Of a stretch of 64,000 nt of DNA, positions 1 through 63,173 are shown one piece after another (the stretch's first letter is position 1; each line of letters begins with the position of its first letter). The stretch comes from Candidatus Termititenax aidoneus (GTDB taxonomy: Bacteria; Margulisbacteria; Termititenacia; Termititenacales; Termititenacaceae): the NCBI GenBank assembly GCA_003864455.1, contig BGZN01000005.1:9280-73279 (forward strand), read 5' to 3'. The position numbers and the translations under genes are program-made. The notes below the pieces were generated by a model. It searched no databases. It was not told the DNA's origin and worked only from the letters and a program-made list of their open reading frames with translations.

Positions 1-313
1 TCCAGAAAATAAAAAAGCTGTGTTGTTGGCTTATTTGAAACAAATAAAATATGAAACAGTTGTGGCCAATGATAAGGCTATGGAGGTGGCAGAGCGTTTT
101 GTTGACCTCAAGGTGTTGAAACAAAAAAGTTTTGATGACTGCCAGCATATCGCTGTGGCAATAATCAGTGGTTGTGATGTGATTGTGTCTTGGAATTTTA
201 AGCATATTGTCAATCATAAAACTATTGCAGGTGTTAAAGCAGTAACAGCATTGGAGGGTTATAATGATATTTTAATTTATGACCCGTCTGTTTTGGTTGG
301 AGGTGTGGATTAA
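1..313 (+). CDS. PIN-domain (VapC-like) protein, 5'-truncated by window edge
   Basis: The ORF is open to position 1. Its C-terminal motifs (D..HIAVAI..G.D.IVSWNFKHI) resemble the PIN fold. Confidence 0.45.
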   Translation, partial: PENKKAVLLAYLKQIKYETVVANDKAMEVAERFVDLKVLKQKSFDDCQHIAVAIISGCDVIVSWNFKHIVNHKTIAGVKAVTALEGYNDILIYDPSVLVGGVD

Positions 314-492
314 TGATACATGATGTCCCAAGACCTAAAATAAGTCCTAAATTTACCATAGAAGATATTCATAAACTCCGTGAATGGAATTATGAAAGAT
401 TAAAAGACGCAACGCCGGAAGAACGCTTGGCGGATAGTCGTGAAGAAATTGAAAAGTTTAACGCCGCGCTGTTGGCAATCCCGGCATTGTAA
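313..492 (+). CDS. small hypothetical protein (59 aa), ATG overlaps the PIN gene stop
   Basis: An ATGA start/stop overlap at 311-315 gives a 59-aa ORF (MIHDVPRPKISPKFTIEDIHKLREWNYERLKDATPEERLADSREEIEKFNAALLAIPAL). It falls below the ORF-track cutoff. Confidence 0.2.
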   Translation: MIHDVPRPKISPKFTIEDIHKLREWNYERLKDATPEERLADSREEIEKFNAALLAIPAL

Positions 493-514
493 TCGGCTGA
501 TTGTGGGTTCAAAT

Positions 515-1528
515 ATGTTGCGCAAAATAAATGAAAACGAAACCGCGCGGTACAACGCCTTTGTCGCGCAGGCCGCGCAGGGACATTTCATGCAGACGAC
601 TTACTGGCGCGATTTGAAATGCGCTTTTGGCTGGCAGGATGCCGGACAGTATATTCTGGAAAAAGACGGCCAAATAATTGCCGGTTTTTCGCTTCTGCTG
701 CGCGCCAAATTTGGTCTAAAAATTCTCTATGCGCCGCGCGGTGCGCTGTGGGATATCGCAGATGAGGCGGTCACGGCAGAAACTTTGAATTTTCTGAAAG
801 ATTTGGCTAAAAAACAGCGCGCTTTTTTTATCCGTATTTCGCCAGATTATCTGGAAACGGACACAACAGCCAGGCAAATATTAACCAAGCATAATTTTCA
901 CTTTTCTAGAAAACAATTGCAGACCAAAGCCACTATGCTTGTTAATTTACAGTGTTCCGAAGATGAATTATTGGCCTCATTTCACGAAAAAACTCGTTAT
1001 AATATCCGTCTGGCCGAACGCAAAGGCGTGACGGTAGGTGAATTGCAAAATGAGGCGGAACTTCAGGATTTTTACCGCATAATGGAGCAAATGGCCGCGC
1101 GGCAGGATTATAATTTGCAATCTTACGATTATTATAAGTACATCTGGCAAAGATTGCCCATCGCTAAAATTTATCTGGCCAAATACGACCGCAAAATTAT
1201 CGGCGGCGTGGTGGTTTTTTCATTCAAGGATACGGCTTATTATATGTACGGCGGCTTTGACAGCGAGTACCGCAAGGTGATGGGCAATTATCTTATTCAC
1301 CGGGAAATAATGCGGCAGGGTCAGGCCGCTGGATTGAAATATTATGACCTGCAGGGTGTGCCGTTAAGCAAAGACGAAAATCACCCGATGCACGGTTTTT
1401 ACCGTTTCAAAAAAGGCTTCAACGGACAAGAAGTGGAGTTTATTGGCGAGTATGACTTTGCGCCGCTGGGCTGGCCGTATCAGCTCTGGCAAAATTGGCC
1501 TTTTGACCGGCGGCAATATTTACAGTAG
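515..1528 (+). CDS. FemAB-family peptidoglycan bridge aminoacyltransferase (FemX-like)
   Basis: The protein is about 338 aa from the internal ATG at 515 (MLRKINENETARYNAFV...). It shows FemAB-like features (HxxxYNIRLAERKGV, YYMYGG). The upstream part of the listed ORF is probably non-coding. Confidence 0.7.
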   Translation: MLRKINENETARYNAFVAQAAQGHFMQTTYWRDLKCAFGWQDAGQYILEKDGQIIAGFSLLLRAKFGLKILYAPRGALWDIADEAVTAETLNFLKDLAKKQRAFFIRISPDYLETDTTARQILTKHNFHFSRKQLQTKATMLVNLQCSEDELLASFHEKTRYNIRLAERKGVTVGELQNEAELQDFYRIMEQMAARQDYNLQSYDYYKYIWQRLPIAKIYLAKYDRKIIGGVVVFSFKDTAYYMYGGFDSEYRKVMGNYLIHREIMRQGQAAGLKYYDLQGVPLSKDENHPMHGFYRFKKGFNGQEVEFIGEYDFAPLGWPYQLWQNWPFDRRQYLQ

Positions 1529-1551
1529 TTAATATTCCCGGCGACGATTTT

Positions 1552-1800
1552 TTAAAAATCGATCAGCTCACGTACTTTAATGTTTAAAGTTTCACAGAGT
1601 TTCATCAATTGAAGCAAAGAAATATTAGCCGTACCTTTGATCATTCGATAGTAATAATAAATGCTGATGCCGGAAGTGTAAGCCAAACTTTCTTTAGTGG
1701 GGAAACCTTTGGCTGTTCGGAATTTCTCGATCCGCTTGCCTAGCCGTTTAAATTTAGGGTTGATAATTTCCCAATAACGTTCTTTTGGCGTTCTTTCCAT
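1552..1800 (-). CDS. XRE-family helix-turn-helix transcriptional regulator
   Basis: The 82-aa protein has a typical HTH_XRE core (ISIYYYYRMIKGTANISLLQLMKLCETLNIKV). It is divergent from the Cys-rich gene and has paired palindromic operators in the shared intergenic region. Confidence 0.7.
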   Translation of the reverse strand: MERTPKERYWEIINPKFKRLGKRIEKFRTAKGFPTKESLAYTSGISIYYYYRMIKGTANISLLQLMKLCETLNIKVRELIDF

Positions 1801-1817
1801 GATAGCCCATCCTTAAT

Positions 1818-1837
1818 CCTACTTAATTGAGTAAGTT
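1818..1837. promoter_or_regulatory. operator-like palindromic site 1 (CCTACTTAATTGAGTAAGTT)
   Basis: This is the first of two 20-bp near-identical copies. Its ACTTA-N6-TAAGT dyad overlaps the -35 element. Confidence 0.5.
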
Positions 1838-1839
1838 GC

Positions 1840-1868
1840 TTGACATCTTATAAACAGCGGCTTATAAT
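1840..1868 (+). promoter_or_regulatory. sigma70-type promoter (TTGACA-17 bp-TATAAT) for the Cys-rich gene
   Basis: A consensus -35 TTGACA lies at 1840-1845. A 17-bp spacer follows, then a consensus -10 TATAAT at 1863-1868. Confidence 0.6.
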
Positions 1869-1871
1869 TAA

Positions 1872-1891
1872 CCTACTCAATTGAGTAAGTT
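1872..1891. promoter_or_regulatory. operator-like palindromic site 2 (CCTACTCAATTGAGTAAGTT)
   Basis: This second copy has a perfect ACTCAATTGAGT palindrome. It lies just downstream of the -10, at the expected transcription start. Confidence 0.5.
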
Positions 1892-1926
1892 AATTTTAAG
1901 TAACAAATATCTAAGGGGGTATGTAT

Positions 1927-3930
1927 ATGGCGCGTTACAAATATAACCTGCCGGACGGAGAGACAGCGGTTGCCGGCGGGACACCAACAACGAGTACGGG
2001 ACTAGCTGAAACGGCTGAAAATAAAACGCAGAATTATTTATCCGGCCATGAAGCTTACGCGGCGGATTACAATCAAACAGTAGCAAATCTTAAAAAAGAA
2101 TATGAACACAGGTTAGCTCCTGAAATATCCGGCACAAACACTAGTCAGGATACCGCGAAAGCGGTGGCTGCAAATACAAAGACGAATCTGGATCTGCTGA
2201 GGGATGCGGTATCCGGACAGACCAGGATAGAAGCCAGCCAGATCACGACTTTGCGTGATGCGACAATTGGTCTGGTCAACTATAACAACAGCGCTGTTTT
2301 TCCCTGGGGTGAAAATATATCAGCCCTGTCTACCAAACTTAGAGCTAAGCATCTGGAAGAAGTGCGGCAGGTCATAGACGACGCGCTAAATAACGCGCGC
2401 TGTGTGGGCGGCTGCACATCGACTTGCGGGAGAGTCTGCGGCAATGACTGTGTGGCGGACTGCAAAGCCAGCTGCGGCGCGGCCAGCTGTACCAGCGAGT
2501 GCGGCGTGGCCTGTGCCACAACCTGCGGAGACGGGTGTAAAGAAGTTTGCGGTAAAACGTGCGCGTCATCTTGCGATGACGGATGTATAGGTTCTTGCGG
2601 GACTATATGCGCGGATGCCTGTGGTTCGGTTTGCGCTACAGGCTGCGGCATAGCGTGCGCATCTACTTGCGGAGACGGGTGTAAAGACGTTTGTGGGACT
2701 ACTTGTGCCACTGCCTGTGGAACGGCTTGCACGGATGGCTGCGGCGCAGCGTGTGCAACAACTTGTGGCGACGGCTGTAAAGATGCCTGCGGTGCGATTT
2801 GCTCATCTGCCTGTGGAACGGCTTGTACGGACGGTTGCGGCACAGCATGTGCGACAACCTGCGGTGACGGTTGTAAAAATGTTTGCGGTACTATCTGCAC
2901 GACTGCTTGTGGCGACAGCTGTACAGGTAATTGTGGCAGTGTTTGTGCTGCTGATTGCGGCGCAATCTGTACAAGTGGTTGCGGCTCTGCTTGTGCGGCT
3001 TGCGGTTCAGCTTGTCAGTTTAATACCTGTAGTAATACTTGTAATGCTACAAATTACCATTATTGTAAAGATGGTTGCGGAAAATCTTGTGGTGGTCATG
3101 CCAAAACAAATATAGGAAGTTGTTTAGGAACTTGCGGCGCTGGCTGCGGTAGCGGTTGTGCTAGTTGTACTGATACATGTAACAATACTTGCGGCGGCGG
3201 TTGTGTAGACGTTTGTAGTGTTTGTGGCACAAGCTGTGCGTCTGCTTGCGGTAGCGCTTGTGGCAGTGCTTGTGGCGCAGCTTGTATGTTTGCTTGCGGC
3301 ACAATCTGCGCGGATGGCTGCGGACAAAAATGCGCGTCCACCTGTGGTGACGGGTGTAAAGAAGTTTGCGGGGCTACCTGTGCCACTGCCTGTGGAACGG
3401 CTTGTACAGACGGCTGCGGACAAAAATGCGCGTCCACCTGCGGAGACGGGTGTAAAGATGTTTGCGGTACTACCTGTGCCATTGCTTGCGGCTCGGCTTG
3501 TACAGACGGCTGCGGACAAAAATGCGCGTCCACTTGCGGCGATGGCTGTAGAGGAGCTTGCGGCGAAGCCTGTAAGTCTGCCTGTGGAACGGCTTGTACA
3601 GACGGCTGCGGGGCGGCCTGCACCTCTGCTTGTGACGAGAACTGTACAAACGACTGCAGCGGGATTTGCGCGTCCACCTGCGGAGATGGTTGTGCCGGCA
3701 GCTGCGGCAAGGCTTGTGCTTTGGGCTGCGGGGTGAGCTGCGCGGTGGGCTGTTCGCAGACCTGCGATGCGGCGTGTAATATAAATTGTAATACAGACTG
3801 CCGGAATAATTGTTATGACGGCTGTGTCAGCAGTTGTTTTAATGGCTGTGCGGAAACAAGCCGATATGAACCCTATCCGTCTGTTGTAAAAACTCCGGGC
3901 AGTAAAGCCAATCGCGCGGCGGGGACGTAG
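1927..3930 (+). CDS. Cys-tetrad repeat protein (about 125 Cys at CxxxCGxx periodicity in 32-aa super-repeats), no signal peptide
   Basis: The ORF is 669 aa. An SD (AAGGGGG) at 1913-1919 favours the ATG at 1927 over the one at 1921. The N-terminal roughly 160 aa are non-repetitive. Then come about 500 aa with a cysteine every 4th residue (e.g. CGQKCASTCGDGCKEVCGATCATACGTACTDG repeated). Antisense ORFs over this region are repeat artefacts. Confidence 0.8.
   Translation: MARYKYNLPDGETAVAGGTPTTSTGLAETAENKTQNYLSGHEAYAADYNQTVANLKKEYEHRLAPEISGTNTSQDTAKAVAANTKTNLDLLRDAVSGQTRIEASQITTLRDATIGLVNYNNSAVFPWGENISALSTKLRAKHLEEVRQVIDDALNNARCVGGCTSTCGRVCGNDCVADCKASCGAASCTSECGVACATTCGDGCKEVCGKTCASSCDDGCIGSCGTICADACGSVCATGCGIACASTCGDGCKDVCGTTCATACGTACTDGCGAACATTCGDGCKDACGAICSSACGTACTDGCGTACATTCGDGCKNVCGTICTTACGDSCTGNCGSVCAADCGAICTSGCGSACAACGSACQFNTCSNTCNATNYHYCKDGCGKSCGGHAKTNIGSCLGTCGAGCGSGCASCTDTCNNTCGGGCVDVCSVCGTSCASACGSACGSACGAACMFACGTICADGCGQKCASTCGDGCKEVCGATCATACGTACTDGCGQKCASTCGDGCKDVCGTTCAIACGSACTDGCGQKCASTCGDGCRGACGEACKSACGTACTDGCGAACTSACDENCTNDCSGICASTCGDGCAGSCGKACALGCGVSCAVGCSQTCDAACNINCNTDCRNNCYDGCVSSCFNGCAETSRYEPYPSVVKTPGSKANRAAGT
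2400..3800. repeat. in-frame tandem DNA repeats (about 12-nt tetrad period, 96-nt super-repeat) encoding the Cys-tetrad array
   Basis: The motif ggacaaaaatgcgcgtccacctgYggWgacgggtgtaaagaWgtttgcgg recurs at about 3316, 3415 and 3511. TGY-GGN codon periodicity is visible throughout the region. Confidence 0.7.
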
Positions 3931-3932
3931 GT

Positions 3933-4220
3933 ATGAAAACTCTCGCTGTGCTGACCCGCGATGATATACGCAGTCTGGAGATTGCCATAAATAAAACAAC
4001 CTGCGCTCAACAAGCGCTGCGCGCGAACGCTATACCTGCGAACGCGCCAAAAACCGCGGCGGATAGATTTTTCCGCGAGGCGATCTTTGCGTATGCGGAC
4101 GCGCAATATTTGCAGGGGTATTTCTGGCGGGATCTGGCGCGGCGGTACGGAGTGGAGCAAAAATATATGGACAGGCTACATGTGGATTTTAATACGAACA
4201 AGTTGCTTATGAATGAATAG
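3933..4220 (+). CDS. hypothetical protein (95 aa), apparently translationally coupled to the Cys-rich gene
   Basis: The start codon lies 3 nt after the upstream stop. There is no recognisable domain. Confidence 0.4.
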   Translation: MKTLAVLTRDDIRSLEIAINKTTCAQQALRANAIPANAPKTAADRFFREAIFAYADAQYLQGYFWRDLARRYGVEQKYMDRLHVDFNTNKLLMNE

Positions 4221-4586
4221 TTGGATTATTGCGCCGGAAATATTTTGTCGGACAATGTAAAACAAAGGGAGAACATGTTGTGTCGCTTCGACGCAGCTCA
4301 GCGACCGGTTGTTGTGATGCGCGAGGGCGAATATTTTGCCGGAGTAAAAAGGGCTTTAACAAGCGGATAATACGGAATGAAAAATATAGACTAACAAATT
4401 ATGTTTACAGGAAGCAAAAGCAAAAGCGCCTAACCTGTAGAGCGGAGAAATTTAGTAAATCACAGAGTTGCGCGCTGGAGGCGAACAGAAAAAATATAAG
4501 TTGCTGTACCAGAGCTTTTGCGGTTAAGAAGTTCTGGCCAGTTGCGGGTGCAGGGCGGCTTTGGAGTCCGGCGGGCATTTTCTTTG

Positions 4587-4622
4587 GATACTTTCTTTTT
4601 TGCTCGTGAAAAAGAAAGTATC
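4587..4622. promoter_or_regulatory. 14-bp-stem hairpin (GATACTTTCTTTTT-N8-AAAAAGAAAGTATC) immediately upstream of the radical SAM RBS
   Basis: A perfect inverted repeat ends 26 nt before the ATG at 4648. It could be an attenuator or processing structure. Confidence 0.35.
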
Positions 4623-4647
4623 AATTAAGGCAGAAAAGGAATAGTTT

Positions 4648-5847
4648 ATGATACCAGCTATCAAGAATTATGAGGGATTGAGTGTTACGTTCCAGGTAAC
4701 GGAGGATTGTAATTTAAGGTGTAAGTATTGTTATGAAGTGGATAAGAAGCCCGGAGATTTGCCATTTGAATATGCCAAAAAGTTTGTAGACATAATCTTA
4801 GAGGATGAAGACCCGATCAACGCCAAAGGCACGGATAGCGAGTGGATACTCCAACAAGGATTAATAATAGATTTTATCGGCGGAGACGCATTAATGACGC
4901 CGGAATTGCTGGATAAAATACTGACGTATTATCAGTACAAGGCAATAACAATGAATCACAAATGGGCGTACCGCTGGAGAGCCTCTATTTCCAGCAATGG
5001 GACATTGTTTGAAGACCAGAAAGTAAGGGATTTTATGATGAAGTATAAAGATAATCTTTCGATAGGCGTATCGGTAGATGGTTGTCCGGAGATACACGAT
5101 AAGAACCGCATACATAAAGACGGCCGGGGGACAATGAAAGATATACAGAAATGGTGGGATTGGTATTTGGAGTGGCACGGAATAGATAGCGTGGCGACCA
5201 AAGCTACGTGTAATAAAGATATGATACCTTATTTAGCCAAATCGATAAAATTCTTGCATGAGGAGATGAGATTAAAGCATATAAACATAAACTTTATCTT
5301 TGAGGATATGCACTTAACAGAGGACGACCTAAAACAACTAGACGAGGAAATGGAGAAGTCTACAACGTACATATTGGAGCACAGAAACGATTTACATGTA
5401 AGTATGTTCGATAAAGGCTTTGGCATAGGCGAGCCGCTGAAAGACCCGGACAAGGGTTGGTGCGGCTCAGGATCAATGCCGTGCCTGAGTATCAACGGCA
5501 AGATATACCCGTGTTTCAGATTTAGCCCGAACACGATGCACAGCAGGAAGTTAGATTTTTATGTAGGGGACATTTGGAATGGACTAAACCATAAAGAACG
5601 GTTTGAGATAGTCCGAAGTCAGACTAGAAAGAAAATTTCTCCTGAAAAATGTCTGACCTGTAATGTAGAGTCCACCTGCGCGTGGTGTATAGGTGGAGCA
5701 TTCGCGGAGAAGGGGGAATTTTACCGGCAGACGAATATTTGCGAGGTGCACAAACTGCAGAGCAAGTGGAGCAGGAGATACTGGGAGGAGTACGATAAAT
5801 TAGAGGGCACTAAGTCTTTCGACGAAAACGGGAAAGTGATTTTGTGA
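4648..5847 (+). CDS. radical SAM/SPASM-domain maturase (anaerobic sulfatase maturase-like)
   Basis: An N-terminal CNLRCKYC (CX3CX2C) motif is followed by GGDALMTPE. The C-terminal region has extra Cys, including CLTCNVESTCAWC, which is an exact CX2CX5CX3C SPASM signature. Confidence 0.85.
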   Translation: MIPAIKNYEGLSVTFQVTEDCNLRCKYCYEVDKKPGDLPFEYAKKFVDIILEDEDPINAKGTDSEWILQQGLIIDFIGGDALMTPELLDKILTYYQYKAITMNHKWAYRWRASISSNGTLFEDQKVRDFMMKYKDNLSIGVSVDGCPEIHDKNRIHKDGRGTMKDIQKWWDWYLEWHGIDSVATKATCNKDMIPYLAKSIKFLHEEMRLKHININFIFEDMHLTEDDLKQLDEEMEKSTTYILEHRNDLHVSMFDKGFGIGEPLKDPDKGWCGSGSMPCLSINGKIYPCFRFSPNTMHSRKLDFYVGDIWNGLNHKERFEIVRSQTRKKISPEKCLTCNVESTCAWCIGGAFAEKGEFYRQTNICEVHKLQSKWSRRYWEEYDKLEGTKSFDENGKVIL

Positions 5848-6346
5848 TTTAGTCCGGCAAATATATTTACCCTCGCGAACACGGCATAGCACTGAAGGTT
5901 ACGTTCGCTACGGGTAAAATATTTGCCGGACTGAATTTGGTGAATATTTAGCAGAGCGAATATTTTGCCGTAAGCGCGTCTGGCTCGAACTTAACAAGCA
6001 AAGCGAAGTTAAGTGAGAGTCCACCACGCGCGGCGGTAAAGATATTCGCTCTGCGGAAGGGACGGAGTGTTTAGGTAAAGTCGCTTCGACGGTTCGACAT
6101 CTCGACTTCGCTCCCTTCGGGGCTACGCTCGATGACCGCAAGCTCACCGTCCCAAGCTCAGCGACCGGTTGTTGCGATGCGCTGGCAAAGGTATTTGCCG
6201 GACGTGAATGGCCTCCCCTTGGCAAGGGGAGGCGGCTAAAAATTTGCCACAGGCAAATTTTTGGCGGAGGGGTGTTTTGCGGAGCAAAACATTGGTTCAT
6301 GTAAGGTTATTATACGAGGAACAAAAAATAAAAAGGAGGAAAAATT

Positions 6347-6721
6347 ATGACAAAGAGCAATAACGAGGAAGCAAAAGAGACGAAGCCGGAGGTGTGCCCG
6401 ATCTGCGGGAAAGTGCATCCGCAAAGAGAGGACTTGAATATTAAAGCGACACGGGACGAGGTAGAGAGCTTGATACTCATAAACAACCGGGTAAATGTGG
6501 CGGAGCAGGCGGCGCGTCCGACGGCCTTGCAGCAGGGGGTTACGCAGGAGCAGGTGCAGGTGTTCGTGAATGCGGCGCTCAATGCTAAGGCAGAGGCCAT
6601 GAATTTACAGCGGCAATGGTGGAATGAAATATTCGCCAAGTATCCGCAATTACCGAGAGACAAAAATGTGTTTGTGGATTTTGATACTTGTGATTTCTAC
6701 TTGAACTTAACGAGCAGCTAG
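6347..6721 (+). CDS. hypothetical small protein with N-terminal CPICGK zinc-ribbon-like motif
   Basis: A strong RBS (AGGAGG) lies at 6333-6338. The 124-aa ORF sits between the two radical SAM genes. Confidence 0.5.
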   Translation: MTKSNNEEAKETKPEVCPICGKVHPQREDLNIKATRDEVESLILINNRVNVAEQAARPTALQQGVTQEQVQVFVNAALNAKAEAMNLQRQWWNEIFAKYPQLPRDKNVFVDFDTCDFYLNLTSS

Positions 6722-6890
6722 GCTGCGAAGTTAAGTGAAAGTCACAAGCCGCTGAAAGCGGCGAAGTGCTAGTGCAAATAGAGCGATAGCGAAGTTACTT
6801 GTTGCTCTCACTTCACTTCGCTAACGCTTGTGAAGTTCGAGGCGGTCGCAAGGCCGCTGGAAGCGGCGAAGTGTTAGGACAGATAGCGCA
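6722..6890. repeat. REP/MITE-like dispersed repeat copy between the two radical SAM-locus genes
   Basis: The copy reads gcgaagttaagtgaaagtcacaagccgctgaaagcggcgaagtg ... cgaagttacttgttgctctcacttcacttcgc. It has internal inverted symmetry and shares words with the tRNA-flanking repeats. Confidence 0.55.
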
Positions 6891-8123
6891 GTGATAAAAC
6901 AACCATTGTATGAAACTGTTAATAAAGAATTAGGGGATTATCCCCCTGAGTATTTTTGTGAGCGATTGAGAATTTGCAGTGTGTCGCTGCAAGTAACCGA
7001 AAAATGCACGAATCACTGCCGGCATTGCGCTAATTACGGTTCTCCGCAAAACACAGCCAGTTTAGATTTTGCTGTAATTAAAAAAGTTATCGTTGAAATG
7101 CTTGAGCAAAAATATTCTCTGCTCTTACTTTGGGGCGGTGAGCCTTTTTTGTATAAGTATTTTTATGAGACTATAAAATTTGCCTTTGCTAGCGGGATAA
7201 AAGATATTGGCGTAAATACCAATTGTTTTTGGGCTGTGTCAGAAAAAGCTGTGGAGGGATTTATAAAAAAAGTAGCATCTTGGCAGAACAATGACCAAAG
7301 GCTTACCTTGTCGATTAGTTGTGATAGATTTCATCAAGAGCAAGAAGCAAGCACGCCTGTAAAAAATATTGTAAATCTAATAGCTGTGTTGGAAAGAGAG
7401 GGGCTTGATTATGATATACAGTCAATATACACCGAGAACGATACTGTTTTTGAATCAGTCTTAACAGCTCTGCGGGAAAGAAATGTGCCTGTGGATAATG
7501 TTAAAAAACGCCGAAGAGTTCTTCCTTTGGAATACATTGGCCGCGCGGCACAATTATCTCATAAGACTGATTTTGCAGCGGAATATAACTGCGCTTTTTT
7601 AAATAAAAATCCAGAAATATTGCTTTTTGTTACGGCTGGCGGGCAAGCTGTTTTTGCTGAAAATTTTGTGGGAGATAAGCTGCTGCCTTTTGGCAATATC
7701 AAAAATCAATCGCTGGCCGATATCGAAAACGAAATGAATTCTTGCAAGATCTTAAAATTGATCCGCCTCTGGCCGAAAAAATTCTTCTTTTACCCGTTTC
7801 GTAAATATTTAGATTTACAGGATTTTTGCTGCGACTTATCCGATGGTAAAATTAAAAATGCGTTTTATGTACGGGATAAAGTGACGGAAATATTACAAAT
7901 TAAAGAAAAACAATTCGACATGTCAGACAAACTGCAAGCTGCCAGACGAATATACAGCGGTGTGAATGAGCTGCCGGAACAAGAGTGTCTGGATATTATT
8001 GAGCGTTACGGTGATCTTTCCGATGTTTTTTATCTGCGGGAATTAAACGGAAAAATTACCACTGAGCAAAAAATTCAAACAATTTTAGCCACAACATTTT
8101 CTATGAGCGGAAATCAAATATAA
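6891..8123 (+). CDS. radical SAM protein (no SPASM domain), GTG start
   Basis: A CTNHCRHC (CX3CX2C) motif sits near the N-terminus, followed by LLLWGGEPFLY. The C-terminal half is not recognisable. Confidence 0.7.
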   Translation: MIKQPLYETVNKELGDYPPEYFCERLRICSVSLQVTEKCTNHCRHCANYGSPQNTASLDFAVIKKVIVEMLEQKYSLLLLWGGEPFLYKYFYETIKFAFASGIKDIGVNTNCFWAVSEKAVEGFIKKVASWQNNDQRLTLSISCDRFHQEQEASTPVKNIVNLIAVLEREGLDYDIQSIYTENDTVFESVLTALRERNVPVDNVKKRRRVLPLEYIGRAAQLSHKTDFAAEYNCAFLNKNPEILLFVTAGGQAVFAENFVGDKLLPFGNIKNQSLADIENEMNSCKILKLIRLWPKKFFFYPFRKYLDLQDFCCDLSDGKIKNAFYVRDKVTEILQIKEKQFDMSDKLQAARRIYSGVNELPEQECLDIIERYGDLSDVFYLRELNGKITTEQKIQTILATTFSMSGNQI

Positions 8124-8306
8124 ACACAGACTGCTTATAATCCGCCTGTCCAGTGGTGTCCGGCACGGTTTTCTAGGTGCGGCCGGCGATCTCCAGTTTT
8201 TTGCGGAAGCGTGTTACCAGAGCCATCGGCAGGTGAATAAAATGGTCATTGCGGCGTGATTTTCTCGCTGGGATAACGCCGGACAAAATGTTAAGATTTC
8301 CGCTGT

Positions 8307-10103
8307 ATGCAAATAGACCTGATCCGCAATTTTTCGATTATTGCCCATATCGACCACGGTAAATCCACGCTGGCCGACCGTCTGCTGGAACTGACCGGCG
8401 CGGTGTCCGCGCGGGACATGCGCGCCCAACTGCTGGACTCTATGGACATCGAACGCGAACGCGGCATCACGATCAAGCTCAACAACGCGCGTTTGAGTTA
8501 TCAGGCTTTGGACGGCAAAGTTTATGAATTAAATCTGATCGACACGCCCGGCCATGTGGATTTTAGTTATGAAGTGTCGCGTTCGCTGGCGGCCTGCGAG
8601 GGCGCGCTGCTGGTCGTGGACGCTTCGCAAGGCATCGAGGCGCAGACGCTGGCCAATGTCGGTCTGGCGCGCGAACTGGGCTTGCAAATAATTCCGGTGA
8701 TCAACAAGATCGACTTGCCGGCCGCCGATGTAAATATGGCGCAGGAAGAATTGCTCGATGTCCTGGGTATAGACCCCGATGAATGTATTTTGGCTTCGGC
8801 CAAAGAAGGCCTCGGCATACAGGATATTTTGGAAGCGATAGTGCGGCGCATACCCTGTCCGCAAAACAATAACAAGCCCCTGCAGGCGCTGATTTTTGAT
8901 TCTTATTTTGACGAGTACCGCGGCGTGGTCGCGCAGATCCGGATCAAAGAAGGCCGGATGCGCAAAGGCATGAAAATGCAGACTATGCAGACCGGCCAAG
9001 AACATGAAGTGCTGGAACTCGGCGTCAAAACTCCGGCGCTGAAACCGGTGGACGAGCTGTCGACCGGCGAGGTGGGTTATGTCATTGCCAATATCAAGGC
9101 CATTGAAGACGCGACTGTCGGCGATACTATTACCGACGCTTCCGCTCCGGCCGCCGAGCCATTGCCCGGCTACAAACCGGCCAAGTCCATGGTTTTTTGC
9201 GGACTTTTTCCGGTGGACGGCGAGCAATTTGAGGCTTTGCGCGAAGCCCTGGGCAAGATGAAACTCAATGACGCGGCGCTGCAATACGAGCCGGAAACTT
9301 CGACCGCGCTGGGTTTTGGTTTTCGCTGCGGTTTTTTGGGTTTGCTGCATATGGAAATAGTGCAGGAGAGACTGGAGCGCGAGTATGATCTCAATCTACT
9401 GGCCACCACGCCTGCGGTGGAAGTGGAAGTTGTCAAAACCAACCGCGAAATAGAATTGATCGATTCTCCGGCCAAACTGCCGCCGGTCTCCAGCATCGAG
9501 GCTATCCGCGAGCCTTTGGTCAAAGCGGTAATCATCACGCCCAACACTTACACTGGCGCGATCATGGAGCTGTGCCAGAAACGCCGCGGAATATTTCGCG
9601 ATATGGAATATCTGGACAAGACGCGCGTGCGCCTAAATTACGAACTGCCGCTTATCGAAATAGTCACCGATTTTTTCAATAAATTAAAATCTGTCTCGCA
9701 GGGTTACGCTTCTTTTGACTATGAGTTTATCGAATTTCGCGAGTCGGACATGATCAAGCTGGATATTTTGCTCAACGGCGAGCCGGTGGACGCGCTGGCG
9801 GTCATCATTCACCGCTCCACGGCGGAATCCCGCGGCCGCAAACTCTGTGAAAAACTCAAGGAGCTGATCCCCCGGCACATGTTCGAGATACCTATACAAG
9901 CGGCGATTGGCGGCAAAGTTATCGCCCGTGAAACTATCCGTGCCAACCGCAAGGACGTTACGGCCAAATGCTACGGCGGTGACGTGACGCGCAAACGCAA
10001 ACTTCTCGAAAAACAAAAAGAGGGCAAAAAGCGCCTGAAATCCGTCGGTTCTGTGGACATACCGCAGGAAGCGTTTTTGGCGATGCTGAAAATTGAAGAA
10101 TGA
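8307..10103 (+). CDS. lepA: translation elongation factor 4 (LepA)
   Basis: The N-terminus reads [22 protein letters not shown], with a GTPase G-domain. The 598-aa length is typical. Confidence 0.95.
10064..10096. repeat. 33-bp direct repeat, copy 1 (lepA 3' end), flanking the MntA/HepT cassette
   Basis: The sequence tttttggcgatgctgaaaattgaagaatgattt recurs at 10796-10828 with one mismatch. Confidence 0.8.
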
Positions 10104-10137
10104 TTTTTTAACGCAAATAAAATGATATAATAAGCGC

Positions 10138-10437
10138 ATGAGTAATTTTTTGTATAGCGTGGACGATATCAAATCCCGTGTTGCTGGTGTGGCCGATAAA
10201 TACGGTATTGGACGGGCTTTTTTGTTCGGTTCTTACGCCAGAGGCGAGGCCACTCCGCAGAGCGACATTGATATTTGCATTGAAAAAGGCCAACTCCGCA
10301 CCTTGCTGGAATTATCAGGGTTTTATCAGGATTTGGAAAAAACTTTACAGCATAAGGTCGATGTTGTGACTATGGACGGCCTGGATAATAATTTTAAGGC
10401 CGAAATAAAAAAAGAATTTGTGCTTATTTATGAATAA
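10138..10437 (+). CDS. mntA: nucleotidyltransferase-domain antitoxin (MntA-like)
   Basis: It carries the minimal nucleotidyltransferase signature LFGSYARGEATPQSDIDI. It overlaps the HepT start by 8 nt. Confidence 0.8.
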   Translation: MSNFLYSVDDIKSRVAGVADKYGIGRAFLFGSYARGEATPQSDIDICIEKGQLRTLLELSGFYQDLEKTLQHKVDVVTMDGLDNNFKAEIKKEFVLIYE

Positions 10438-10780
10438 TTCAAAAGACGCTAGTTTGCTCAAACATATTCTCAAGCATTGCGAGGCGATCATTGCCGCGCA
10501 AAAAAGATTTGGCCAGGATTTTGAAGTGTTTGCCAAAGATACAGATTATTTTAATTCTGTTTGTATGAGTTTATTGCAGATTGGTGAATTGGCCAATCAT
10601 TTATCAGCGGAGTTTCGGACTAAACACAATGTGCTGTCATGGCCGGAGATTATTGGACTGCGTAATGTTGTCGTGCATGGATATGGACAGTTGGACGCCG
10701 CTATTGTTTGGGCGACGCTTAATGAGGATGTGCCAAAACTTCTTCAGTATTGTGCTAAATTGCTGTTCTCAAGCGAATAA
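10430..10780 (+). CDS. hepT: HepT-like HEPN toxin (DUF86)
   Basis: An R-x4-HxY HEPN motif (LRNVVVHGYG) is present. The start is likely the ATG at 10430, overlapping the mntA stop. Confidence 0.8.
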   Translation: MNNSKDASLLKHILKHCEAIIAAQKRFGQDFEVFAKDTDYFNSVCMSLLQIGELANHLSAEFRTKHNVLSWPEIIGLRNVVVHGYGQLDAAIVWATLNEDVPKLLQYCAKLLFSSE

Positions 10781-10795
10781 ACAAAGCCAGAAACA

Positions 10796-10828
10796 TTTTT
10801 GGCGATGCTGAAAATTGAGGAATGATTT
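10796..10828. repeat. 33-bp direct repeat, copy 2 (duplicate of the lepA 3' end)
   Basis: It matches 10064-10096 except for one substitution (gaa to gag). Confidence 0.8.
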
Positions 10829-10922
10829 CAAATAATTTTGACGAAAAAATAATTAAAAAATTACTATAATATCCGCCCGGTTTAAGTTATAATCCTTACA
10901 CAAATTAAGTGGAGGAGATTTT

Positions 10923-11684
10923 ATGCAATTTCTCATTTTGATATTGATCGTTGCGGCGGTGGTCGTTTTGGCTTCGGTCAAGCAGATCAATCAATATGAG
11001 CGCGGTCTGCTTTTTTCTTTTGGCCGGTTTACGAAAATTTTGGAACCGGGCTGGCGGCTGGCGCTGCCGGTAATCCAGTCTTTTGAGAAAGTGGACATTC
11101 GCACCAAGGCTGTCGATGTGCCGCCGCAGGACGCCATCACACGCGACAATGTTTCGATCAAGATCAACGCCGTGATTTATTACAAAGTTTTTGACGCGGG
11201 CAAGGCGATCATCGAAGTCGAGAATTTTTATTACGCCGTGAGCCAACTGGCGCAGACTACCATGCGCAACACTGTCGGCTCGGTAACGCTGGACGAACTG
11301 CTGACCGACCGCGAAAAAGTTTCCAGAGAAATCTGTTCGATCATCGACAAGCTGACTGACCCGTGGGGCATCAAAGTTGAGAATGTCGAGTTGAAAGATA
11401 TTGCTTTGTCCGAAGAAATGAAACGCGTCATCGCCAAAGTCGCCGAAGCTGAACGCGAAAAACGCGCGGTCATCACCAAAGCGGCCGGCGAAGTCGAGGC
11501 TGCGGAAAATCTGGCCAAAGCCGCTTCGCTCATGGGACAGACACCGGGCGCACTGCATTTACGCACGCTCTCCACGCTCAATGATTTGAGTTCCGACCAG
11601 TCCAACACAGTAATTTTTGCCGTGCCGGTCGAAGCTTTGCGCGCGCTGGAAGGCCTGGCTAAACTGGCGGAGAAAAAAGCCTAA
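10923..11684 (+). CDS. SPFH/band-7 (stomatin/HflC-like) membrane protein
   Basis: An N-terminal TM helix is followed by an SPFH core (YERGLLFSFGRF...ITRDNVSIKINAVIYYKV). The RBS is GGAGGAG. Confidence 0.85.
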   Translation: MQFLILILIVAAVVVLASVKQINQYERGLLFSFGRFTKILEPGWRLALPVIQSFEKVDIRTKAVDVPPQDAITRDNVSIKINAVIYYKVFDAGKAIIEVENFYYAVSQLAQTTMRNTVGSVTLDELLTDREKVSREICSIIDKLTDPWGIKVENVELKDIALSEEMKRVIAKVAEAEREKRAVITKAAGEVEAAENLAKAASLMGQTPGALHLRTLSTLNDLSSDQSNTVIFAVPVEALRALEGLAKLAEKKA

Positions 11685-11715
11685 ACGCATCAAAAAAAGC
11701 GGGGTAAGCGGGGGC

Positions 11716-12813
11716 ATGTTCGGGCTCTATATTCACATTCCGTACTGCCTGCAAAAATGCCGCTACTGCGATTTCGTGAGTTTTCCGGTAAATTCTGTCC
11801 CTGACGCTTACATCGACACTTTGTGTTTTGAAATTAATGGGTATTTTTCTGCTGATAGTGGGTATAAATATAGTGATAATATAATATCGACAATATATGT
11901 CGGAGGGGGGACGCCGAGTTTGCTGTCCGCCGGGCAGCTAGCCCGGATAATCGCAAGCGTGAAAAATATTTTTGCGGTGGCGGACGGCGCGGAATTTACG
12001 CTGGAAGCCAATCCGGAAACTTACGCGAAAGAAAAATTCGCGGCCTATCGAGCGCTGGGCGTAAACCGGATTTCTTGGGGCGTACAGTCTTTTCAGCCGG
12101 AATATTTGCGGTATTTAGGACGGGCGCATTCGCGGGAAAAAGCGGCCGAGGCTTTGCGGGGCGCGCGGGAAATTTTCGACAATGTCAGCGTGGATTTGTT
12201 GAACAATTTGCCCGGGCAGACTCTGGAGCAAAGCGCGGCGGATTTGCGGACGGCGGTGGATTTTCAGCCGCGGCATATTTCCTGCTACGAGCTGACTGTG
12301 GAGCGCGGCACGCCGCTGGCTGCAGAAGGCGGCACGCCGCTGGCCGCGGAAAAAACCGTCCGCAGCGAATTGGAGGCCGAAATGTATTTGCAGACAAAAA
12401 AAATTTTGGCGGAAAACGGCTACGCGCAATATGAGATTTCCAATTACGCGCAGGCCGGTTATGAGTCCAAACACAATTTAGCCTATTGGTCAGATGAGCC
12501 GTATCTCGGCGTGGGGTTGGCCGCGCATAGTTATGACAAAGCCGGTGGTCGGCGCTGGGCGAACACGCGCAATCTCCAGGATTATCTCCGCAGGATTTTT
12601 CACCGCGAGACAGAGACGGAAAATGCTTTTAACAAAATCCTAATGGGCTTGCGCAAAAACAGCGGCATTCCCGAATCCTATCTCAACGCGCGCCAAAAAG
12701 CCGCTGCCCAAAAATTAGTTTCCGAGGAATTGCTGGCCTGGCAAAATAATAATTTGTGCGCGACCAACCGCGGACGCTTGGTTTTAAATCAAATACTGCT
12801 GGAGTTAATGTGA
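11716..12813 (+). CDS. hemW: radical SAM heme chaperone HemW (HemN-like, oxygen-independent coproporphyrinogen oxidase family)
   Basis: The protein begins MFGLYIHIPYCLQKCRYCDF at the internal ATG at 11716. It is HemN-like throughout. Confidence 0.85.
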   Translation: MFGLYIHIPYCLQKCRYCDFVSFPVNSVPDAYIDTLCFEINGYFSADSGYKYSDNIISTIYVGGGTPSLLSAGQLARIIASVKNIFAVADGAEFTLEANPETYAKEKFAAYRALGVNRISWGVQSFQPEYLRYLGRAHSREKAAEALRGAREIFDNVSVDLLNNLPGQTLEQSAADLRTAVDFQPRHISCYELTVERGTPLAAEGGTPLAAEKTVRSELEAEMYLQTKKILAENGYAQYEISNYAQAGYESKHNLAYWSDEPYLGVGLAAHSYDKAGGRRWANTRNLQDYLRRIFHRETETENAFNKILMGLRKNSGIPESYLNARQKAAAQKLVSEELLAWQNNNLCATNRGRLVLNQILLELM

Positions 12814-47930: not shown

Positions 47931-50900
47931 CTAATTCAACACCGCAAATTTAGATTTGATGATGTGTTTTTCGCCGGTGACTTGGTCGGTCAGTGTGAGC
48001 AATACTATATACACGCCGTTGCCGATCTGGTCATTGAAATCATTTTCGCCGCTCCAGATAAATTCCGCCGGAAAATCATTTGTGGCCGGCAGGTCTTTGG
48101 TTGTCTTATATAGCAGCCGGCCGCTGATCGTGTAAATCCGCAGCTCCGCACTGCAATTATTTGGCGCGCGGTAAACAAAATGCAGCGGACCGTCGGTCAG
48201 CTTGACCGGATTGGGCGCGATGATTACATTGTAATTTTCCACTATAGTTGCGTTCCTATTGAGCGCCGAGCCGAGCGTGTACATTCCTGGCTTGTTCGTG
48301 GTAAAACTGACCGCGCCGTTCGCGGCCAGCTGCGCTGCGTTGCCGGTAAACATTTTCCATTTGTATTCCTGCGCGTCAAAATAATAAACAGCCAAATTGT
48401 TGTAAGACGCGGCGTCCGGCGTCAGCGGTATAGTAACTTCGATGCCCTTGTTTGCCGCGCCGCTAAAGTTTAATTCCCAGACGCTGGAAATCCACAGCGT
48501 TTCATTGGCGTTTGGATAATAATTGCTGTATGTAACATCGTTCAGCGTTACGGTTTCATCGTCGTCAAATGTACCAGCCAGCGCCAGGACGCTGACATTG
48601 GGACTATTGCCTTCCTGATAAAAGTCCACAAAATTAAAAGTTACGGCATTGGCAGTGGCAGTGTTCTTGGCTTGGTCTTGCGCGACTATGATAATATCGA
48701 TATTGCCTGATGACCGATCACTGAAATTCAAAGTCAGAGCAAAAGTTGTCTGGCTGTAACTGTCTCTGTCAATCATCTCCAGTTCGCCGTTTACGTAAAC
48801 CAAAATTTCACTCTTAATTTCTTTGTTGCCGGTGATGCGGATCAACGCGCGGCTGGTGTCTGTGTAGCCGAGCGGCGAAATATCCGGTGTAGCCGGCGGG
48901 AAAGTGTCGGGGATAGTCCGAAAAACATAAGCCAGCACGCTGATATTGCCGCTGCTGCCGTTATAATTATTATTGTCGCGCGCTGTAACGGTTACTCTGT
49001 ATTCCGTGTCGTACTCCAGTTCCGGCGGCTGATAATTGAGCTGGTAACTCTTGCCGTCGCTGCTGGGCGTCAGACTGCCGCTCAGGTCAATGAAATACCG
49101 CGTCTCGTTGTTTATCTGCAGAATTGTATATATCGGATTGACGCCGCTCATCGTGTCGATAAGATCGACGATTATTCGAGAATCGATACTGACTGAATAA
49201 TTATTGTTTACCGGTTCGACCGGCTGAATACTCGGCATGGACAAATCGGGCGCGGTCAAGAAATGCTGCGTGCTATTGGCCGTATTCCCGAAAACATCGG
49301 CAATATTTAAAGTGATCTGTAAATTTTTGTTGTAGCCAATATTCGTTAGCAATAATTCCGCGGTCAATTGTTTATTGGCGGTGGTTATAGACAAGACCTG
49401 CATTGTGGCCAGCGGATTATTGATAGAAATACTGATGCTGTCCGGATCGAGGTCTGAATAATTGTCTTCAACAAAAATATTGATTACGGCGTTGTCCGTA
49501 TTTGGATTGCCCTGCGTGATGGTAAAGGTATTAACTGTCGGCGGCCGGAAATCCGTGATGACGACAAAATTATAGGCCAATTCTCGCTGATGTCCCAGAT
49601 TATCCTCAATATTAATCGTTACGGAAACCGTGCTGCCTAGTTCAAAAAAGTCCGGCGGCGTGTAAATAATTTGCGCGTTGTAAATGTCGCTGGCATCTAT
49701 AGTGTAGTCTGCCGCACTGATTACATTGCCGCTGACTTCCAGCGTCAAAGTATTGAGACTGAGACCGGATTCCAAATCCTGGATATTAAAACTGAGCGGC
49801 GTGTCTTGCGGCGTTCTGGTTTGGCCTGGCGCTGGATAGGCCAGGATAGCCGGCGGATCGGTGTCGGCCTTGGTTTGGAAAACAAAAACTTGAGCAGTTA
49901 CCAGTTCGACATTATTGGCGGCGTTGATCGTAATAGTATACGGCTGGTTCAATTCTAAACGGCCGGCGTAAATATAAATGTTGTTCGCGCTGGCCCGCAA
50001 TTCGGCGGTGCGGTCAATATCATTCAAAATAAAATTAAATGTGGCGATCTCGCTTTCATTATCCGTAACCAAGAAAACAATATTTTGCGTAATGGCAACG
50101 CCGGTCAGGGCGAGCGGCTCGATCAGGTTAATAGTCGGAGCGGTTTTGTCATTGATCGTGCGTACCGAGATCGTCACGGTCAGCTCGGCATAATTTCCTG
50201 TAATTACTGCGGACAATTCTTCCTGCGGCGGGTGATTGAAAATTATGCTGCTGGTAGCGCTCGCCGGATTTGCGGAGTTGTCGCCAAAAGAACCGGCGCC
50301 GTCTGTGCTCAGAGTTACCGGCACTTCCTGCAGCGGTGTGCCGTATTTATCCTGCACGGAAATATTGATGGTCGAAGTCTGGCTAAAATTCTTGACGATC
50401 AGAGCCGGCGCTAGATTCAGCACAGCCGGATGCACCAGCTCAAATTTGCCGATATGCAGTGCTTGAGCGCTGAGCGTGTAGCCGCCCTTGAGGTTTGGTG
50501 AGATCACGGCGTTGCCGGTCAAATAAATATTGTCGGTCATATTCCCGTAATAATCGCTCAAAACTTTTCCGTCTGCTGAGATGAATGGATATTTGTCCGG
50601 CGAATACATTTCCAGCCAATAGGTTTTGCCGTTTAAGGACGCGACCGCGGAAGTGTCAAGATAATTCGCGTTGAGGCTCAGGCTGCGAAAATCGGCGCGT
50701 TCATAATCTATTTGATTGCTGGACGGCAAGGTGAGCGCGCCCAGCCATTGACCATCTATTTCGCGGTAAATAGTTACTGTCGAATCCGCGGTAAATTCAT
50801 TCATATCGCCGTTCTCATTTTCAGCGTAGTAACCGGCGTCAATCGGCAGCAAAATGCTCGGCCGGTATTCCAGCGCGCCGATATCGTAAGGCTCACTGCG

Positions 50901-62876: not shown

Positions 62877-63173
62877 CGCTTGAAACTCTCCCTCGTCTAA
62901 ATTCATACCCATTTTCCGGTAAAATATACCTGACGCCCCTGCGTCAGGTACTTCCGCGCGCGCATTGTGAGACGCGCGCGGTCGTACCATAATAGTAGTA
63001 TTTATTTTTGCCGCCCCTGCGATCCGGTCGCTGAGCCTGGGACGGTGAGCTTGTATCCTGCGGATACGCTGGCGAACCGTCGAAGCGTCGGTCGTATCAT
63101 GCTGATTTTTATATCGACATATATGGTAGATATATGTATTGATTTTTTCTGGGGCTTATTTGTAATTAGCCTC

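Follow-up and report, generated by a model that had tools for sequence, protein, structure and literature searches.

In the immunity regions of lambda and 434, CI acts at OR with the promoters PR and PRM, through three operators and with Cro as antagonist, and the TetR/tetA region of Tn10 has overlapping divergent promoters with two palindromic operators close together between the genes. We analyse here a 120-bp intergenic region that can be compared with these systems. It lies in a 64,000-nucleotide (64-kb) stretch of DNA from Candidatus Termititenax aidoneus (contig BGZN01000005.1; we refer to this whole stretch as the window), between xre, the gene for an 82-aa helix-turn-helix (HTH) regulator of the XRE type, and a divergent gene for a Cys-rich CXXX-repeat protein, to which we refer as the cargo.

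Two further systems are close to this locus in protein or in design. In the case of the controller (C) proteins associated with restriction-modification (R-M) systems, such as C.AhdI, C.PvuII, and C.Esp1396I, autoregulation depends on dose: binding at a strong distal site turns on a weak promoter, which is repressed from a second, weaker site (PMC2275141, PMC2504287); the operator, known as the C-box, has the form GACT-N3-AGTC-N4-GACT-N3-AGTC and is located upstream of the C gene (PMC2175313). In the Bacillus subtilis conjugative plasmid pLS20, overlapping divergent promoters of unequal strength are controlled by Rco, which is a repressor of the strong promoter and acts on its own weak one as activator and repressor alike; the Rco tetramer loops the DNA between operators that contain multiple sites, and one of these operators is reported to lie >85 bp downstream of Pc (PMC4207663). 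The anti-repressor of Rco is Rap (PMC7641744).

For the locus described here, we propose, with a probability of about 0.78, that the 120 bp between xre and the cargo gene constitute a compact two-way switch that is run by XRE and in which XRE would function as the repressor of the cargo. The arrangement is that of an ordinary bacterial repressor switch, very well conserved and of known architecture; what the present analysis adds is a putative overlapping, autoregulated promoter of xre and the apparent portability of the cassette.

Operators, promoters and regulator across Margulisbacteria loci

The elements of the intergenic region and the two genes that flank it are as follows.

1552..1800, minus strand: xre, 82-aa XRE/Cro-C1 HTH regulator (Pfam, AlphaFold 2 (AF2) model, structure matches, PADLOC)
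1810..1814, minus strand: Shine-Dalgarno sequence of xre, AAGGA, 9 nt ahead of the xre ATG (1800->1798), read from the sequence
1818-1837, no strand: predicted operator O1, the 20-mer CCTACTTAATTGAGTAAGTT, a weaker, imperfect dyad
1840-1845, plus strand: cargo promoter -35, TTGACA, sigma70 consensus match, conserved in 11 loci
1845..1850, minus strand: inferred xre -10, TAAGAT, conserved, with T, A and the final T invariant in 11 loci; inferred start at ~1838
1863-1868, plus strand: cargo promoter -10, TATAAT, sigma70 match; inferred transcription start at ~1875
1868..1893, no strand: predicted operator O2, the 26-bp conserved palindrome TTAACCTACTCAATTGAGTAAGTTAA, the strong site
1913-1919, plus strand: Shine-Dalgarno sequence of the cargo gene, AAGGGGG, read from the sequence; cargo ATG at 1921
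1921..3930, plus strand: cargo gene, CXXX-repeat protein of 669 aa (N-terminal domain of 160 aa, then 119 Cys)

An initial annotation of this DNA had described a consensus promoter (-35 at 1840-1845, 17-bp spacer, -10 at 1863-1868) bracketed by two 20-bp repeats (1818-1837 and 1872-1891) 54 bp apart, and all these positions proved exact on re-reading, the 54 bp being the distance between starts. The two 20-mers, CCTACTCAATTGAGTAAGTT being that of O2, differ at a single base (95% identity). Their 14-mer cores are TACTTAATTGAGTA in O1 (1820-1833, centre 1826.5) and TACTCAATTGAGTA in O2 (1874-1887, centre 1880.5), and in a repeat search O2 was found to be nested in a 40-bp imperfect palindrome (1861-1900) whose arms are 91% complementary. 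With respect to the promoter elements that the repeats had been said to overlap, the O2 20-mer begins 3 bp past the cargo -10 and does span the expected +1, but O1 ends 2 bp before the -35. The sequence AAGGGGG(T) is also found ahead of the orthologous genes in four related loci (L001, L006, L044, L045).

Both the promoter and the sites stand out from the surrounding DNA. The cargo promoter is the sole 12/12 sigma70 match within positions 1-9000 and, with both strands of the window taken together, the sole match of >=11/12, by a scoring that assumes an E. coli-like consensus in Margulisbacteria. When the window was searched with the 12-mer ACTYAATTGAGT, allowing for 0-1 mismatch, O1 and O2 alone were recovered. 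With a weight matrix derived from 22 orthologous sites, the O1 and O2 sets being pooled, the two sites score 28.4 and 30.4 bits and all other positions of the window score <9 bits; the best scores of shuffled windows have a mean of 10.2 and a maximum of 18.8. Neither the matrix nor the mismatch search detected further operator copies that could make up a regulon in the window or in related contigs. The arrangement is more than chance would give, the only two occurrences of the palindrome in the window being those that flank the promoter, and the observation itself is confirmed, with site and promoter coordinates that are exact and unique in the window. A search of positions 1-12000 against Rfam returned no RNA family.

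The assignment of 1552-1800 to the XRE HTH proteins likewise stands, with 32.6 bits against Pfam HTH_26 (cut-off 22; E 9.5e-8); HTH_3, at 22.8 bits, falls just under its cut-off of 23. The AF2 model (mean predicted local distance difference test score, pLDDT, 86) consists of helices at 15-30, 36-43, 47-55, and 62-72 together with a short N-terminal helix, i.e., the five-helix lambda-repressor-like domain, and the top Foldseek matches are all XRE-type HTH domains. The nearest solved structures by sequence are C.AhdI (E 1.3e-7) and C.BclI (E 9.7e-7), and the nearest by fold is again C.AhdI (Foldseek template modelling score, TM, 0.93; 36-38% identity), followed after these two by SinR, C.Esp1396I, ClgR, and DdrO; the top PADLOC match is Control_protein (E 9.7e-11). 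XRE is 100% identical to a protein recorded for 'Candidatus Termititenax aidoneus' and belongs to a narrow clade: a HMMER search of 1.84 billion representatives yielded a single cluster at E<1e-30, and only seven clusters at E<1e-10. Neither Pfam domains nor the AF2 model indicate a sensor domain in this bare 82-aa HTH protein. From homology and fold, XRE appears to belong with the small HTH dimers of the Cro/C1 and R-M C protein type and would recognise the 14-bp dyad TACTCAATTGAGTA as a dimer, with half-sites ~9-10 bp apart. Its recognition helix GISIYYYYRMIKG (GISIYYYYRMIKGTANISLLQL) is invariant among orthologues, which matches the invariance of O2.

The predicted recognition helix itself (residues 46-52, SIYYYYR) contains four tyrosines in a row, an unusual makeup for an HTH reading head that is invariant in orthologues. 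In distant relatives, a Tyr-rich helix of the YY(Y/F)YR type is partly kept (YYFYR, LYYYR, YYYYR).

The comparative evidence comes from 11 distinct loci with readable upstream DNA: the window, nine orthologues with 65-79% identity, and one with 91%. Scans of metagenomes and genomes with an XRE alignment added L005 (truncated), L006 (new), and L007 (a duplicate). In all 11 loci, exactly two sites are present upstream of the xre orthologue, with a valid sigma70-type promoter between them, and the common order, in the orientation of xre, is O2, ~30 bp containing T.TAA..T..C.A, O1, Shine-Dalgarno sequence, ATG. The O2 consensus is c(C/T)TACTC(A/T)ATTGAGTAGG, mostly extended to TTAACC...GGTTAA, and that of O1 is TACTC....AG.A(G)G, which is imperfect in every locus. 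Mean pairwise identity over the 11 loci is distributed as follows.

O2 core (18-mer): 0.935
TAAGAT (xre -10): 0.87
O1: 0.76
cargo -35: 0.76
cargo -10: 0.645
third-codon positions of xre: 0.48
spacers and flanks: 0.32-0.42

The cargo promoter varies in sequence (-35: TTGACA, TTGAAA, TTGCAA, TTGTCA, TTGCGA, TGGACA, TAGAAA; -10: TATAAT, TAAGAT, TATCAT, TAGGAT, TAGAAT, TACAAT, TAAAAT, TGTAAT), its spacer is 16-17 bp, and TAnnnT is kept at the -10 in 10 of the 11 loci despite the sequence change, a pattern that points to selection on function and not to recent common descent. The geometry is similarly constrained: O1 and O2 are 54-57 bp apart; relative to the inferred cargo start, the centre of O2 falls at +6.5, or at +8.5 in three loci, and that of O1 at -48.5 to -51.5; relative to the inferred xre start, O2 is centred at -42.5/-43.5 in every locus and O1 at +12.5 to +15.5. 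Taken over the 11 loci, these features support the earlier proposal that a strong cargo promoter is bracketed by two predicted XRE operators in a locus that would be repressed.

Two short metagenome contigs open with perfect 40-bp palindromes centred on O2 (L013 1-40, L015 1-40). These contig ends are probably fold-back artefacts of the assembler at the operator, because L012, which has the same xre allele as L013, has a different, non-palindromic left flank.

The gene that faces xre is not constant. It encodes a CXXX-repeat protein in the window, in L001, and in L003/L004, whose contigs end within the repeat; in L011 it encodes an InlB-B-repeat lipoprotein, and in L002, L008, and L012 a tail-fibre-like protein (PHROGs tail-fibre families, E 2e-9 to 4e-3), the latter being a weak label in that it comes from PHROGs matches alone, with nothing in Pfam. 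The genes downstream of xre also differ locus by locus. In L006, xre and the cargo are separated by a second HTH gene (180-401), and both operators remain beside xre; the cargo is preceded by a separate TTGCAA-17-TATAAT promoter that lacks xre-type sites, and the promoter divergent from xre, degraded to TGGACA/TGTAAT, points at the 3' end of another gene. Furthermore, in two loci found via the N-terminal domain of the cargo (L044, L045), the HTH protein encoded divergently to the cargo homologue is not an XRE orthologue but a different one. That of L045 shares 35% identity with XRE and 47% with the HTH inserted in L006 and has a different recognition helix; its sites are TTCGTTATAGCGAA and TTCGTAATTACGAA, on either side of TTGCAA-18-TATAAT, with a third site downstream. 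In L044, CACCAATTTGGTG is located inside the spacer of TTGACA...TATATT. These comparisons indicate that the operators belong to xre and not to the cargo, because the sites stay with xre whatever gene faces it and a different HTH is accompanied by different palindromes. Such a change of helix that goes with a change of dyad, the bracketing being kept, appears to be the nearest thing to a specificity test in this data set.

The second small-HTH family, divergent to CXXX cargo in other Margulisbacteria, comprises L006 180-401, L045 2128-2346, and L044 3571-3888. The palindromes of the L045 protein are of the TTCG-N6-CGAA type, and L006 carries both regulator types in tandem. It looks as if one repressor had been exchanged for a non-orthologous one while the promoter design stayed as it was.

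The proposed switch and alternative explanations

The arrangement in L008, where O2 lies only ~20 nt from the ATG of the opposite gene, implies that transcription of xre has to be driven from somewhere between O2 and the xre start codon. The conserved TAAGAT (1845..1850), which has one base pair in common with the cargo -35, is the candidate -10; a recognisable -35 match is lacking, the candidates GGTTAA and GTTAAT fitting 1-2 of 6 positions, and a promoter scan found no other promoter-like site between O2 and the xre start codon. We infer that xre has its own weak promoter that overlaps the strong cargo promoter and is probably autoregulated.

Under the model that we favour, an XRE dimer at O2 would block RNA polymerase at the cargo promoter and thereby turn the cargo off, and O1, directly upstream of the cargo -35, would reinforce the block. 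Occupancy of O2 would, at the same time, free and possibly stimulate the weak overlapping xre promoter; lambda CI and class II activators contact sigma from a site with its centre at ~-42. At a higher level of XRE, O1 would be filled as well and, from its roadblock position (~+12.5), would cap the synthesis of XRE. We assign XRE the role of a cargo repressor because a dimer at O2 would occlude the polymerase and a promoter of consensus sequence can do without an activator. Relief of repression, with XRE lacking a sensor domain, would need a partner protein, proteolysis, or dilution; the induction by 'stress or metal' envisaged in the initial annotation finds no support in such a protein.

Several points weigh against this model. 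The proposed xre promoter has no -35 match, and its -10 was chosen partly for its conservation, which could instead belong to the -35-proximal spacer of the cargo promoter. The promoter positions in general rest on the assumed 7-nt start offset and the E. coli-like consensus. The distance between the operators varies over 54-57 bp, roughly one third of a turn of the helix, which speaks against looping as a requirement and against cooperation tied to one face of the DNA, and L006 indicates that the xre cassette can persist without an adjacent cargo. Finally, O2 outscores O1 under the weight matrix in 11 of 11 loci, a comparison that is partly circular in that the matrix drew on both site sets.

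The other explanations differ in what they take the palindromes to be. If XRE were an activator of the cargo promoter, or purely autoregulatory, the position of O1 at -48.5 to -51.5, where some regulators activate, and the cassette of L006 that lacks an adjacent cargo would be readily accommodated; we nevertheless consider such a role quite unlikely, given that a promoter with a 12/12 consensus should need no activator and that the strongest and best-conserved site, O2, covers the start (+6.5/+8.5), a repressing position, in every locus. That the palindromes serve another regulator, whether global or responsive to metal or stress, with XRE as an incidental neighbour, would fit the suggestion of metal or stress control made in view of the Cys-rich cargo. 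It is very unlikely, in our judgement, when the two sites accompany the XRE orthologue in all 11 loci whatever the facing or flanking genes, no more sites are present in the window or related contigs, and cargo homologues with a different HTH have different palindromes; moreover, to our knowledge, the dyad is unlike the Fur, Zur, PerR, or LexA boxes or any known metal-regulator box.

Action of the repeats in RNA, as hairpins in the 5' untranslated regions or as terminator-like stems of the cargo and xre transcripts, would be in line with their being palindromic and at least partly transcribed, and with the occurrence of the 20-bp palindrome in actinophage-like viral contigs, partly in terminator-like contexts. 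The predicted folds of the 5' untranslated regions are, however, no stabler than those of shuffled sequences (z +0.29 and -0.30), on which ground we reject this explanation as highly implausible; the dyad is also conserved symmetrically, even in that half of O2 which precedes the inferred start, and the half-sites are about one helical turn apart, as in operators of HTH dimers. The palindromic copies are at the same time inverted repeats that flank the promoter (18 nt, 89% complementary, 32 nt apart) and could, in principle, be recombination sites of an invertible promoter (inverton) that drives either the cargo or xre. Such an inverton is barely conceivable and was rejected as well: the open reading frames (ORFs) and domain matches of the window include no adjacent recombinase, arms ~32 bp apart leave far too little DNA for inversion, and the promoter has the same orientation in all 11 loci, which come from independent metagenomes.

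An extension of the proposed switch concerns the fate of the cassette at the level of the population. Margulisbacteria lineages appear to have joined it to genes for different putative surface or extracellular proteins (CXXX-repeat, tail-fibre-like, and InlB-repeat lipoprotein), and in the termite gut, Termititenax is found attached to other cells. It is conceivable, if doubtful, that xre-O1-promoter-O2 is a portable, sensor-less, single-regulator bistable switch. If so, the strong and weak promoters would occupy the same DNA and polymerase at one would exclude the other, such that a cell without XRE would stay in the state of cargo ON and xre OFF and a cell with XRE in that of cargo OFF and xre ON. 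This would amount to heritable, phase-variable expression without DNA rearrangement, and the spread of the cassette would then fit population-level diversification of the cell surface.

The cargo gene and the surrounding locus

Beyond the cargo gene, the following features were identified.

3933..4220, plus strand: protein like the small CXXX repeat peptide modification system protein (TIGR04116, E 0.008, 16.3 bits, cut-off 50)
4648..5847, plus strand: radical S-adenosylmethionine (SAM)/SPASM maturase of the CXXX-repeat-target type (TIGR04115, 274.8 bits, E 1.3e-81, equivalog cut-off 350)
6347-6721: second TIGR04116-like small protein (TIGR04116 scores of the two, 24.6 and 16.3 bits; cut-off 50)
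6891-8123: second radical SAM enzyme, with a YydG-like N-terminus, under curated cut-offs

In the cargo, 111 of the 118 Cys-Cys intervals are exactly C-X3-C. Its N-terminal domain has homologues (P0011-P0014), for two of which a faint match to PF27846 tSAM_targ_Cxxx_rpt is on record, and yielded no confident predicted structure (pLDDT 41). The gene at 3933-4220 is probably co-transcribed with the cargo, because it starts 2 nt past the cargo stop codon. The maturase at 4648-5847, which also scores 150 bits against the PapB family and is preceded by a 427-bp repeat-rich gap, likely modifies the cargo. The CXXX maturase and accessory proteins score under the curated equivalog values, i.e., they are related to these families and lie outside them. 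Collectively, 1921-8123 looks like an outsized CXXX-repeat radical-SAM system, with the cargo as its target. In the window, the neighbours of xre are FemAB (515-1528), the CXXX-repeat protein, the radical SAM enzymes, and lepA; xre is monocistronic and convergent with the FemAB gene. Literature searches on CXXX-repeat systems and Termititenax returned nothing relevant to regulation.

In these bacteria, CXXX target genes are consistently found behind near-consensus promoters and with divergent small HTH proteins, predicted repressors of differing specificity. That these genes are kept behind such guarded promoters hints that uncontrolled expression of a 119-Cys protein is costly.

Contigs with a cargo homologue nearly always stop within or just past the N-terminal domain (L001 1-30, L003 1-116, L006 1-97, L044 4001-4649). 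The CXXX repeats thus seem to break short-read assemblies, and therefore such proteins are probably under-represented or truncated in databases.

The non-coding gaps at 4221-4647 and 5848-6346 have a 28-nt segment in common (4295-4322 and 6155-6182, 96% identical), and both are rich in inverted repeats whose basic unit resembles GCCGG..AAATATTT..CCGGC. The motif AATATTTGCCGGA, with <=2 mismatches, occurs in 28 copies in the window against 3.1 expected, and a similar hairpin lies between the convergent FemAB and xre genes (1507-1552). Repeats of the AATATTTGCCGGA type may be a genome-wide family resembling repetitive extragenic palindromes (REP). Upstream of FemAB (20-492), two small ORFs of 97 aa and 59 aa with an ATGA overlap at 313 have a toxin-antitoxin-like layout, without a match in Pfam, NCBIfam, or PADLOC. 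At the other end of the window (47931-62990, minus strand), a single ORF of 5019 aa spans 15 kb.

The same 20-bp palindrome, ACCTACTCAATTGAGTAGGT, is present in multiple intergenic copies in viral contigs of ~62% GC from IMG/VR (L017-L043, e.g., UViG_3300046492_000076), with at least 8 copies on a 38.8-kb contig, mostly within G(G)ACC...GGTC(C) and often just ahead of gene starts or past stops. These contigs are weakly similar to Streptomyces phages, and the parts examined contain no XRE relative; the recurrence of the palindrome may be coincidental or may reflect an HTH specificity that is convergent or shared. As for the region itself, the phage collection showed no similarity to it. A phage origin is unsupported, since the region lacks similarity in the phage collection and the viral contigs lack an XRE relative.

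Relation to known systems

We know of no transcription factor that has been characterised in this uncultivated candidate phylum, for which the present analysis offers a concrete and testable assignment of a regulator to its predicted operators and promoters, including a strong promoter/operator pair.

The immunity regions of lambda and 434 resemble the xre locus, as modelled here, in the ~14-bp dyads for an HTH dimer, in an operator near -42 of the weak promoter of the regulator that also represses the strong divergent promoter, and in a weaker site for negative autoregulation. In contrast to lambda and 434, there is one regulator here and no Cro-like antagonist, the operators are two in number and placed outside the promoters rather than between them, the promoters, as predicted, overlap fully, and the setting is chromosomal, with FemAB and lepA as neighbours, and not that of a prophage. 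With Tn10 tet, the locus has in common the divergent promoters of regulator and target, whose overlap is predicted here, and the two palindromic operators; TetR, however, belongs to another fold family and carries a domain for ligand binding, and nothing in the present locus hints at a small-molecule inducer.

The likeness to pLS20 Rco is one of design. Both loci have a divergent regulator gene, a strong outward promoter, and two operator regions, the overlapping weak promoter of the regulator being putative in the case of xre, and the operator positions suggest the same logic of repressing the strong promoter and of first activating and then repressing the regulator's own. Unlike in pLS20, each of the two operators here consists of one dyad, their distance of 54-57 bp makes the phasing variable, and a tetramerisation domain is not evident in the 82-aa protein.

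Among solved proteins, the C proteins are the closest to XRE in sequence and structure, and XRE is, like them, a small, sensor-less HTH protein and dimeric by analogy. The proposed switch would also follow their dose-dependent logic of activation from a strong distal site and repression from a weaker one. Unlike C genes, which lie within an R-M gene pair and are usually co-transcribed with it, xre has no endonuclease or methyltransferase beside it, in the window or in related loci; its operator is TACTC-N4-GAGTA (ACT-N6-AGT) and not a C-box; and its sites are 54-57 bp apart and flank a divergent promoter, whereas those of C proteins adjoin within 35 bp. Because R-M genes and a C-box are both absent, XRE is best regarded, from its sequence and context, as related to the C proteins and outside any C-protein system. 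The locus would thus present a relative of the C proteins that acts outside R-M systems, through operators with a different spacing.

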